The notes beneath the pieces are model-generated. The model saw nothing but the letters and a program-made list of their open reading frames with translations. It had not been told where the DNA came from and did not search any database. Source: Planctomycetota bacterium (GTDB lineage Bacteria > Planctomycetota > PLA2 > JAEUHO01). From it: 64,000 nucleotides of DNA. Made by a program: the position numbers and the translations under genes. Shown one piece after another: positions 4,306 through 25,246 of this stretch. The stretch spans positions 42,634 to 106,633 of the forward strand of contig CAXQZU010000045.1 of the NCBI GenBank assembly GCA_964228555.1. The letters run 5' to 3'. Positions within the stretch are counted from its first letter, which is position 1. Each line of letters opens with the position of its first letter.

Positions 4306-4379
4306 TGGAGGTGCCGCCCGGAATTGAACCGGGATAGACGGATTTGCAATCCGTTGCCTAGCCATTCGGCCACGGCACC
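4306..4379 (-). tRNA. tRNA-Cys (GCA)
   Basis: Reverse complement reads GGTGCCGTGGCCGAATGGCTAGGCAACGGATTGCAAATCCGTCTATCCCGGTTCAATTCCGGGCGGCACCTCCA. It has a 7-bp acceptor stem, anticodon loop TTGCAAA, T-loop GGTTCAATTCC and an encoded CCA. Confidence 0.9.
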
Positions 4380-4539: not shown

Positions 4540-4627
4540 GGGCGAGTGGCGGAACGGCAGACGCAGGGGTCTTAAAAGCCCCGGGGTGCAAGCCCAGTTG
4601 AGGGTTCGAGTCCCTCCTCGCCCACCA
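4540..4627 (+). tRNA. tRNA-Leu (UAA), class II with long variable arm
   Basis: Acceptor GGGCGAG pairs with CTCGCCC. It has anticodon loop CTTAAAA, a long variable arm (GGGGTGCAAGCCCAGT), T-arm GAGGGTTCGAGTCCCTC, discriminator A and an encoded CCA. Confidence 0.9.
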
Positions 4628-5793: not shown

Positions 5794-5878
5794 GGCGGCG
5801 AGGGTACACGCGGCGCACGCAACCGGGGCCCGGCTCGCGCGTCGTGGGGGTATGCTCGGCCTACCCCCCGGAGGCCCC

Positions 5879-6115
5879 ATGCGCATCCGCATCGAGTACT
5901 GCACCGCGTGAGGCTACGAGCCCAAGGCCGTCGGTCTGGCGGCCCTCCTGCTCGAGGAACTCAAGCGCAAGGTGAGCCTGCTGGAGCTGCAGCCTTCCAA
6001 GGGCGGCTGCTTCGAGGTCACGGTGGACGGCGACCTCGTCTACTCCAAGCTGGCCACGGGCGAGTTCCCGGACCCGCAGGCCGTCCTCGCGCAGGTGGCG
6101 TCGCGCGGGCGCTGA
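5879..6115 (+). CDS. selW: SelW/Rdx-family selenoprotein (UGA 5909-5911 read as selenocysteine)
   Basis: GGAGG lies 5 nt upstream of the ATG. Translation is MRIRIEYCTA-U-GYEPKAVGLAALLLEELKRKVSLLELQPSKGGCFEVTVDGDLVYSKLATGEFPDPQAVLAQVASRGR. It has a CxxU redox motif and the Rdx-family GG-FEV-V-G-LV-SK-G-FP block. GC3 stays high after the TGA and a SECIS-like hairpin follows. Confidence 0.8.
5926..5944 (+). promoter_or_regulatory. bacterial SECIS-like hairpin (upper stem and apical loop)
   Basis: GGCCGUC-GGUCU-GGCGGCC forms a 7-bp stem (one G-U pair) closing a GGUCU loop. It starts 15 nt after the in-frame UGA. A possible lower stem pairs GAGC with GCUC on either side. Confidence 0.6.
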
Positions 6116-6152
6116 GGCGCCCGCGGGCCGTGCCGGTGCGGGAGGTGTCGCG

Positions 6153-20332: not shown

Positions 20333-20416
20333 CCGCCAGGCCCGGCCGGGGGTGGGGCACGTGCGTGCCCCCGCCCGTCCGTGCCCCGGCTCCTGCCTCG
20401 CGGCAGGGGAGGTCTC

Positions 20417-21778
20417 GTGAACGCACCCGTCCAGCCCAAGGCCGCCAAGGCACCCAAGGCGCAGAAGCCCCCGATGTTCCCGCGCCCGGTGGGCAAGAAG
20501 CCGACGCTGGCCGAGGTGCTGGAGGTGCTGCAGCCCCTGTGCGGCGAGCCCGTGCACCTCGACCGTGCCGAGGACCCGCTGCTGGACCACCTGCTGGTGG
20601 CCGTGCTCTCGCTGCACACGACGCCCGCGCGCGCCCGCGACGCGCTGCGCGCCCTCTCGGGCACCTACCTCGACTTCAACGAGCTGCGCGTGAGCGCCCG
20701 CTCCGAGATCGAGAAGGCCCTCGAGGACTACGTGCCTTCCGACGTGCGCAAGAAGGCGGCGTGGGACCTGCGCATGGCACTGCAGGATGTCTACGACCAG
20801 ACCCACGGGCTGGACCTCGAGCCCCTGCGCAGCCGCGACCCAGACGACCTGGGCAGCTTCGTGGCGAACATGAAGAAGCCCGAGGAGAAGCCGGCCTACC
20901 CGCAGAGCGTGGGCGGCCCCGTGCCCGCCCTGCCCAACACGCCCGGCGGGCCCGCCGCCATGGTGTTCCAGCTGGCCGTGGGCAAGTCCAGCCTCGCGCT
21001 GGGCCCGCTGGAGCGCCGCTTCCTGGGCCGGCTGGGCCTGATGCCCAACGGCGCGCGCCTCGCGAACAAGCGCAAGGCGCTGGAGCGGCAGGTCAAGCCC
21101 GACGAGCGGCTGCGCTTCGCCTGGGTGGCGGGCACCTGTGCCCGCCTCTTCGAGACCGACTTCGACGAGCGCCATCCCTTCGCGCGCCTGCTCGTGGAGC
21201 GGCGCAGCAAGGAGCTGGAGGAGCGCGAGCGTGCGGCCCGTGCGGCCGAGAAGCTGGCCGAGGAGCTGCGCAAGAAGGAGGCCATCGAGGCCGCGCGCCG
21301 CCAGCGCATCGAGGACGAGGAGCGGCGCAAGCGCGAGAAGGTCGAGCAGCGCAAGGCGGCCGAGGCCGCGCGCAAGAAGGCCATCGAGGACCGCAAGCGG
21401 GCCGCCGAGGAGAAGCGCAAGGCGGCCGAGGCCGCGCGCAAGAAGGCCATCGAGGACCGCAAGCGGGCTGCCGAGGAGAAGCGCAAGGCGGCCGAGGCCG
21501 CGCGCAAGAAGGCCATCGAGGAGCGCAAGCGCGCTGCCGAGGCCAGGCGCAAGGCGGCCGAGGCCGCGCGCAAGAAGGCCATCGAGGAGCGCAAGCGCGC
21601 CGCCGAGGCCAAGCGCAAGGCGGCCGAGGCCGCGCGCAAGAAGGCCGCCGAGAAGGCCCGGGCCGAGCGCGAGCGGGCGGCCAAGGCCCGCCTCGCCAAG
21701 GGCAAGGGTGGCAAGGGCAAGGGTGGCAAGGGCAAGGGCGGCAAGGGTGGCAAGGGCGGCGGCGGTCGCAAGCGCTAG
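20417..21778 (+). CDS. HhH-GPD (endonuclease III)-like domain protein with Lys/Glu/Ala-rich tandem repeats and a KGKGG tail
   Basis: GTG 20417 has GGGGAGG upstream. The N-terminal region (LLDHLLVAVLSLHTTPARARDALRALSGTYLDFNELRVSARSEIEKAL) resembles EndoIII helices. The C-terminus carries about 4.5 copies of a 22-aa repeat RKAAEAARKKAIEDRKRAAEEK, then GKGKGGKGKGGKGKGGKGGKGGGG. Confidence 0.7.
   Translation: MNAPVQPKAAKAPKAQKPPMFPRPVGKKPTLAEVLEVLQPLCGEPVHLDRAEDPLLDHLLVAVLSLHTTPARARDALRALSGTYLDFNELRVSARSEIEKALEDYVPSDVRKKAAWDLRMALQDVYDQTHGLDLEPLRSRDPDDLGSFVANMKKPEEKPAYPQSVGGPVPALPNTPGGPAAMVFQLAVGKSSLALGPLERRFLGRLGLMPNGARLANKRKALERQVKPDERLRFAWVAGTCARLFETDFDERHPFARLLVERRSKELEERERAARAAEKLAEELRKKEAIEAARRQRIEDEERRKREKVEQRKAAEAARKKAIEDRKRAAEEKRKAAEAARKKAIEDRKRAAEEKRKAAEAARKKAIEERKRAAEARRKAAEAARKKAIEERKRAAEAKRKAAEAARKKAAEKARAERERAAKARLAKGKGGKGKGGKGKGGKGGKGGGGRKR
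21350..21650 (+). repeat. 66-bp tandem repeat, about 4.5 copies, in-frame inside CDS 20417..21778
   Basis: Units start at 21350, 21416, 21482, 21548 and 21614 (CGCAAGGCGGCCGAGGCCGCGCGCAAGAAGGCCATCGAGGACCGCAAGCGGGCCGCCGAGGAGAAG). There are only a few substitutions between copies. Confidence 0.85.
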
Positions 21779-25193: not shown

Positions 25194-25246
25194 CCCGCCG
25201 GCGAGCGGCCGCCCTCCAGACGGGGCGTGCCGTGTCGTGACATGCC

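Follow-up and report, generated by a model that had tools for sequence, protein, structure and literature searches.

SelW-like selenoproteins are well documented in bacteria, together with their SECIS elements and the mis-annotation of their genes (PMC1088965, PMC1794560, PMC4607533, PMC11955535). Prokaryotic members were first catalogued in the selenoproteome surveys of 2004-2005, and SelW-like ranked first in abundance among the selenoprotein families of the Sargasso Sea data, contributing 48 genes with a CXXU motif (PMC1088965). The family has few Cys homologues among Sec-using organisms (PMC1794560), and it was 'completely missed' in the annotation of Epsilonproteobacteria (PMC4607533). 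Its prokaryotic members share a length of about 80 aa, an N-terminal CxxU, a full-length profile match, an in-frame UGA followed immediately by a bacterial SECIS (bSECIS) hairpin, and a tendency to mis-annotation. One bacterial example, Campylobacter jejuni SelW (an ORF on CJnc60), is 80 aa long and unannotated in the reference genome; its UGA needs tRNA-Sec, and full-length translation through the UGA was documented by Ribo-seq, termination-site profiling, and proteomics (PMC11955535). Dedicated databases list ~58,000 bacterial selenoproteins (PMC13326102).

The Escherichia coli fdhF SECIS is a stem-loop within the coding sequence, immediately after the UGA, and its GGUC apical loop contains a G-U dinucleotide. 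Of 5426 E. coli genomes, 5419 contain the fdhF SECIS sequence, which falls within annotated fdhF in the matches listed. Eukaryotic SelW relies on a 3'-UTR SECIS and SBP2.

We analysed a 64,000-nt stretch of Planctomycetota DNA, referred to here as the window, and conclude with high confidence that it encodes a 78-residue SelW-like selenoprotein (Rdx family, predicted thioredoxin-like fold) with a Cys8-x-x-Sec11 motif, read by standard Sec insertion (Table 1). Compared with the described prokaryotic family, it differs in nothing fundamental. The window copy stems from a deep-branching Planctomycetota MAG lineage with 75% GC, and its sub-clade has a post-Sec peptide, (N/G)YEPKAVGLA, and an extra cysteine, Cys44.

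The window is a chromosomal region of 75.4% GC with housekeeping genes (Ffh, S16, L31, RF1, PrmC, PurL, AccA, LysRS, EPSP synthase, MoaE, and AcrB). It is ~99.2% identical to contig JBJSYI010000063.1 of NCBI MAG GCA_046089665.1. The nearest species representative, labelled 'Planctomycetia bacterium', has an RF1 that is 95% identical, with all others found at 54% or less. An earlier note on this DNA had proposed a 78-codon frame that runs through an internal TGA to a second, terminal TGA, with high GC3 throughout, and every coordinate of that frame was confirmed. The read-through product begins MRIRIEYCTA, passes the internal TGA (U11), continues as GYEPKAVGLAALLLEELKRKVSLLELQPSKGGCFEVTVDGDLVYSKLATGEFPDPQAVLAQVASRGR, and ends at the terminal TGA. 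GC3 is 1.00 in codons 1-10 and 0.96 in codons 12-78, compared to GC3-equivalent values of 0.45-0.71 in the two other same-strand frames. The GGAGG motif that the note had placed before the ATG is present, with a spacer one nucleotide shorter than the 5 nt it had given. Among five orthologues compared, GGAGG or AGGAG lies 4-6 nt 5' of the ATG in four (L044, L025, L012, and L002), while L003 has no such motif within the 40 nt examined.

Table 1. Features of the selW-like locus in window coordinates, followed by tRNA-Sec genes in the named related loci
Feature	Position	Strand	Basis
Predicted complete SelW-like (Rdx family) selenoprotein CDS, Sec at codon 11	5879-6115	+	translation, PF10262, TIGR02174, structure matches
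Shine-Dalgarno-like GGAGG	5870-5874	+	spacer CCCC, 4 nt, to ATG 5879
Cys8 codon TGC, first residue of CxxU redox motif	5900-5902	+	Cys in 99% of 69 sequences
In-frame TGA, putative selenocysteine codon U11	5909-5911	+	TGA in 68/68 related loci and 11 strain-level contigs
Predicted bacterial SECIS hairpin	5917-5954	+	MFE fold, bSECIS criteria, covariation, third-position conservation, covariance model
Hairpin lower stem CGAGC/GCUCG, 5 bp	5917-5921/5950-5954	+	MFE fold
Hairpin upper stem GGCCGUC/GGCGGCC, 7 bp	5926-5932/5938-5944	+	MFE fold
Hairpin apical loop GGUCU, 5 nt	5933-5937	+	MFE fold
47-aa C-terminal fragment, GTG start, called instead of full gene	5972-6115	+	ORF list, P0001, P0003
True stop codon TGA, no SECIS downstream	6113-6115	+	sequence
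tRNA-Sec, L033	3279-3373		
tRNA-Sec, L051	3237-3331		
tRNA-Sec, L054	3249-3345		
tRNA-Sec, L057	3288-3384		
tRNA-Sec, L060	3291-3387		
tRNA-Sec, L013	3449-3547		
tRNA-Sec, L058	1-93		

Family searches were run with the 78-aa product, with Sec modelled as Cys. The Pfam Rdx profile (PF10262), against which the note had proposed checking the read-through translation, matched residues 2-73 over profile positions 1-72 of 74 (77.7 bits, E 7.7e-22, cut-off 22.6), spanning the UGA position at full domain length. NCBIfam TIGR02174 (CXXU_selWTH) scored 71.3 bits against a cut-off of 34.2. NF041051 (SelTWH_Campy) scored 75.3 bits, below its 88-bit equivalog cut-off, so unlike C. jejuni SelW the window gene is not an equivalog of the Campylobacter-type sub-family. 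The product also matched eight solved Rdx/SelW/MIEN1 structures (best E 4.8e-11), comprising six bacterial Cys-type Rdx proteins (3dex, 2fa8, 2obk, 2oka, 2p0g, and 2ojl), human MIEN1 (2ljk), and mouse selenoprotein W (2npb). In gap-free alignments to 3dex and 2fa8, C8-T-A-U11 falls on their CTQC (CxxC) motif. For 2npb, query residues 2-68 matched chain residues 4-71, ranges that agree with Cys10/Sec13 of mouse SelW. The proposal that the TGA sits within a C-x-x-U motif held. Mammalian SelW and the bacterial Cys-type Rdx proteins thus carry CxxU or CxxC at the same aligned position of a homologous thioredoxin-like domain, but the solved bacterial homologues are Cys forms, which read CTQC in place of the window's CTAU and have neither a UGA nor a hairpin. 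Across the 69 sequences of our codon alignment, U11 is conserved in 100% and Cys8 in 99%. These matches strongly support assignment of the predicted product to the Rdx/SelT-SelW-SelH family, and homology to the eight solved structures suggests that it would adopt a thioredoxin-like fold.

The product has a second cysteine, Cys44, encoded at 6008-6010 within GGCFE and common to 54% of the clade. The same position is Val/Leu in the solved Cys-type homologues 3dex and 2fa8. Cys44 could be a clade-specific resolving cysteine.

A search of a genome collection returned 68 related loci, labelled mainly Planctomycetota and Verrucomicrobiota, with some Acidobacteriota, Eiseniibacteriota, Gemmatimonadota, and others. 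The earlier note had named as evidence against its reading any orthologues without a Cys or Sec codon at this position, or without conservation past the TGA. We instead found TGA at the identical codon in 68 of 68 loci, with the frame conserved on both sides, and Cys-x-x directly 5' of it in 67. Upstream of the TGA, the N-terminal pattern M-x-I-x-I-x-Y-C is conserved at the protein level. The TGA, ATG, frame, and hairpin are intact in 11 strain-level metagenomic contigs, and the syntenic orthologue L044 retains the TGA, ATG, hairpin, and SD-like motif. A true Cys form (P0005, CAMCGY...), with Cys at the Sec position, is without the EPKAVGLA peptide, which overlaps the hairpin in Sec forms. The L153-L162 comparison involved sequences too similar for selection tests. 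An exact 114-nt stretch of the gene had no match in the species-representative genome collection, which excludes the source genome.

Three TGAs in the window have coding-like sequence on both sides, and only that at codon 11 of the selW-like gene also has a bSECIS hairpin. The other two, at 25238 (+) and 38221 (-), were rejected as cases of adjacent genes sharing a frame; neither has a redox motif or a bSECIS.

Downstream of the TGA, the predicted hairpin consists of a lower and an upper stem separated by a 4x5 internal loop. The upper stem begins at the 15th nucleotide after the TGA and has seven continuous pairs, one of them G-U, while the apical loop starts 21 nt after the TGA. The stem, loop, and starting point that the note had described were all recovered; its hairpin was too short in that the 5-bp lower stem had been missed. 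Published bSECIS criteria call for a loop of 3-9 nt, an upper stem of at least 4 bp, a G in the first two loop positions, a spacing to the UGA of 16-37 nt, and an MFE no higher than -7.5 kcal/mol (PMC13188914). The hairpin in the window lies within all of these limits (5-nt GGUCU loop, 7 bp, 21 nt, MFE -21 to -26 kcal/mol, with -23.4 in this comparison), as do 56 of 69 family members in unconstrained folds. The hairpin resembles the fdhF SECIS in its position directly 3' of the UGA and inside the coding sequence, and in its GGUC loop with the G-U dinucleotide. The fdhF loop lies 18 nt after the UGA rather than 21, a difference of exactly one codon where the note had estimated about one. In addition, the predicted fdhF upper helix is interrupted by an unpaired U, whereas that of the window is continuous, and the fdhF host protein is unrelated to the SelW-like product. 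Rfam yielded no SECIS family for the hairpin, either at gathering thresholds across the whole window or at E values up to 10 across 5850-6150; its other matches were two tRNAs and sub-threshold chance matches to miRNA and sucA models. This bacterial element thus has no counterpart among the described Rfam families.

Folding energy alone is no more than suggestive in sequence of 75% GC, with z-scores of -2.1 (57 nt) and -1.4 (48 nt). Covariation was tested in a gap-free alignment of 69 sequences, with slid registers and 500 shuffles as controls. The proposed pairs formed in 71% of cells compared to 25-51% in the slid controls, and eight hairpin pairs showed changes on both sides, with none of the 500 shuffles reaching the observed values. 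Pairing across relatives was 80% in the apical stem and 59% in the lower stem; given the latter value, only the apical stem-loop is firmly conserved. Its apex, GCCGUC-[G/A]GU[C/U]U-G[G/A]CGGC, is near-invariant across Planctomycetota, Verrucomicrobiota, and Acidobacteriota. Within the loop, the G at alignment column 29 is invariant and the next U is more than 90% conserved, while the first and last bases alternate between G.U and A-U, fitting the published N1-G-[G/U]-N-N2 pattern. On this comparative evidence, which we consider decisive, the predicted hairpin exceeds chance.

A covariance model was built from the 68 relatives, with the window excluded, and used to scan both strands of the whole window. 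It gave a single match, at 5906-5962 (+), with 66.1 bits (E 4.7e-11) and all 12 pairs canonical. The note had held that a hairpin not conserved among relatives would count against its reading; both the covariation and the covariance model indicate that it is conserved.

Codon usage at the apex points in the same direction. In the codon alignment (n=69), third-position information is 1.2-2.0 bits at codons 17-21, which encode the hairpin apex (A-V-G-L-A), compared to 0.2-0.4 bits at the invariant Gly/Pro codons 39, 42, 43, 61, and 64. Codon 19 specifies Gly in some sequences and Ser in others, yet 67 of the 69 retain the loop G-U. The window's own apex codons are GTC-GGT, and in its genes GGT accounts for 2.7% of Gly codons and GTC for 15.5% of Val codons. 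As read from these alignments, the conservation demonstrates selection on the hairpin at the RNA level.

The in-frame UGA very probably encodes selenocysteine, directed by the conserved hairpin just downstream. From the fdhF paradigm and from SelW/Rdx proteins, we infer how Sec would be inserted in the source organism, how SelB would bind, and what redox chemistry the product might perform. Translation would initiate at the ATG after GGAGG. With a ribosome at the UGA, the hairpin would be bound by SelB, the Sec-specific elongation factor, together with GTP and Sec-tRNA(Sec). The apical stem-loop, with its G-U 21-23 nt downstream of the UGA, would tether SelB, which would bring selenocysteine to the A site in place of release-factor termination. 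Elongation would then continue to the true stop, which has no such hairpin. The product is most likely a small thiol/selenol oxidoreductase, predicted to cycle through a Cys8-Sec11 selenenylsulfide.

In the window, UGA is also used for termination. Among 22 other family-supported genes, TAG is the stop codon of 14, TGA of 8, and TAA of none, and since TGA terminates 8 of 22, UGA is an ordinary stop in this genome. Such a preference for TAG is unusual, since TGA is normally the commonest stop in very GC-rich bacteria. We found no selA, selB, selD, or tRNA-Sec within the 64-kb window, where the tRNAs are tRNA-Cys and tRNA-Leu only. A genome scan with the SelA PLP-site motif GDKLLGGPQ, back-translated with G/C-ending codons, gave at least 120 matches, with no planctomycete relative among the matches listed. 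The source organism presumably has Sec-decoding capacity, for which the tRNA-Sec genes near the orthologue in seven relatives offer indirect support, and the gene identifies the deep-branching, GC-rich planctomycete lineage as probably using selenocysteine.

The lack of Sec machinery within the window would fit a decaying pseudogene, in which a Cys codon (TGC/TGT) had mutated to TGA, or the Sec machinery had been lost, leaving a 10-residue peptide and a relic frame. A TGA found in all 68 relatives is not a private mutation, however, and the frame, ATG, and hairpin remain intact in the 11 strain-level contigs and in L044, the latter with its SD-like motif as well. GC3 is still 0.96 past the TGA, and the loop retains its rare GGT codon; comparative work also shows lineages losing selenoprotein genes (PMC1794560). 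We therefore regard decay as very unlikely. It is less likely still, and in our view extremely improbable, that the real gene is the short ORF beginning at the GTG, with ATG...TGA as an untranslated leader and the hairpin as a regulatory or chance structure. Automatic annotation does call this ORF on 17 contigs, and relatives are deposited as fragments of 43-62 aa, but the start positions of these fragments differ between relatives, as expected of caller artefacts. The short ORF also omits the first beta-strand and the redox motif, both defining features of the Rdx family, whose profile needs residues 2-73. The supposed leader shows protein-level conservation and high GC3, with an SD-like motif preserved in most relatives.

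The remaining alternative keeps the full frame but has the UGA read by a standard tRNA, whether near-cognate, suppressor, or under a reassigned code, to give a CxxW or CxxC protein. Such a reading appears in one database entry, P0002, a JGI protein with Trp written at the Sec position, which implies that the gene was called there under a UGA=Trp code. In the window, UGA ends conserved housekeeping genes (LysRS, Maf, PurL, and others), so the code is not reassigned. A conserved SelB-type hairpin at constant spacing would be superfluous for near-cognate read-through, a CxxC/U motif with Trp as its catalytic residue would be non-functional, and a tRNA-Sec gene adjoins the selW-like gene in several relatives. 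We give this reading almost no credence and retain selenocysteine insertion as our interpretation of the UGA.

The earlier note had predicted that standard gene callers would miss or split the gene, and the database record agrees. The protein database searched contains 88 relatives, nearly all of them 43-62-aa C-terminal fragments, which indicates that gene callers do truncate the gene. The two closest entries, P0001 and P0003, both correspond to the 47-aa product of the ORF that begins at GTG 5972; together they were called on 17 contigs. Deposited relatives are named 'selenoprotein W-related protein', 'Rdx family protein', or 'SelT/SelW/SelH family protein'. The family, the SECIS type, and the annotation problem are already established, and the locus opens no new question on selenoprotein biology. 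Its practical value lies in annotation: a 78-aa selenoprotein should replace the 43-62-aa fragment, which in this MAG lineage and in most metagenomic protein catalogues is without the catalytic CxxU motif.

Planctomycete-type copies also occur in three loci (L002, L008, and L015) labelled Miltoncostaea (Actinomycetota), Alcaligenaceae, and Alphaproteobacteria, and L002 carries the planctomycete TPR neighbour as well. These odd labels suggest mis-binning or horizontal transfer.

In seven related loci, six labelled Verrucomicrobiota and one, L060, labelled Acidobacteriota, a tRNA-Sec gene (selC) is linked to the selW-like gene. In six of them, five Verrucomicrobiota-labelled and one Acidobacteriota-labelled, it lies downstream of the selW-like stop on the same strand, at 11-59 nt in five and 217 nt in one; in the seventh it lies 2.9 kb upstream. 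We observed no such linkage in planctomycete loci or in the window, and a literature search gave no description of selW-like/selC adjacency. It is conceivable, if unlikely, that the selW-like gene and its SECIS form a module functionally tied to the Sec-decoding apparatus, beyond an ordinary selenoprotein. If so, UGA read-through could couple the supply of selenium or Sec-tRNA to selC transcription or processing; alternatively, the SelW-like protein could serve the Sec pathway as a housekeeping partner. Since the window organism is without the selC linkage, the module reading concerns the family more than the window locus.

The gene neighbourhood is conserved only in close planctomycete relatives, namely in L044 and partly in L002, L004, L007, and L025. 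About 1.3 kb upstream of the gene, the window has a divergent pair of tRNA genes, tRNA-Cys(GCA) at 4306-4379 (-) and tRNA-Leu(UAA) at 4540-4627 (+). L044 shares this pair and the flanking ORFs, which encode a 359-aa membrane-like protein, 121-aa and 119-aa products, and a 431-aa TPR protein. Apart from the TPR repeats of the last, the conserved neighbours had no Pfam assignment, and the neighbourhood therefore gives no clue to function.

Another strain-level sequence, L163, is a mosaic. It is near-identical to the window (two substitutions) from 5749 to ~6084; from ~6085, across the final 10 codons of the gene and beyond its stop, identity falls to ~65%. The break resembles a recombination boundary inside the 3' end of the selW-like gene.

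Elsewhere in the window, a 66-nt tandem repeat of ~4.9 copies occupies 21326-21647, within the ORF at 20381-21778 (+), whose product has no Pfam match. Each repeat unit encodes 22 aa rich in Lys, Ala, Glu, and Arg. The array differs in length by apparently one 66-nt unit between the window and the 99.2%-identical contig L069, and thus behaves as a variable-number repeat.
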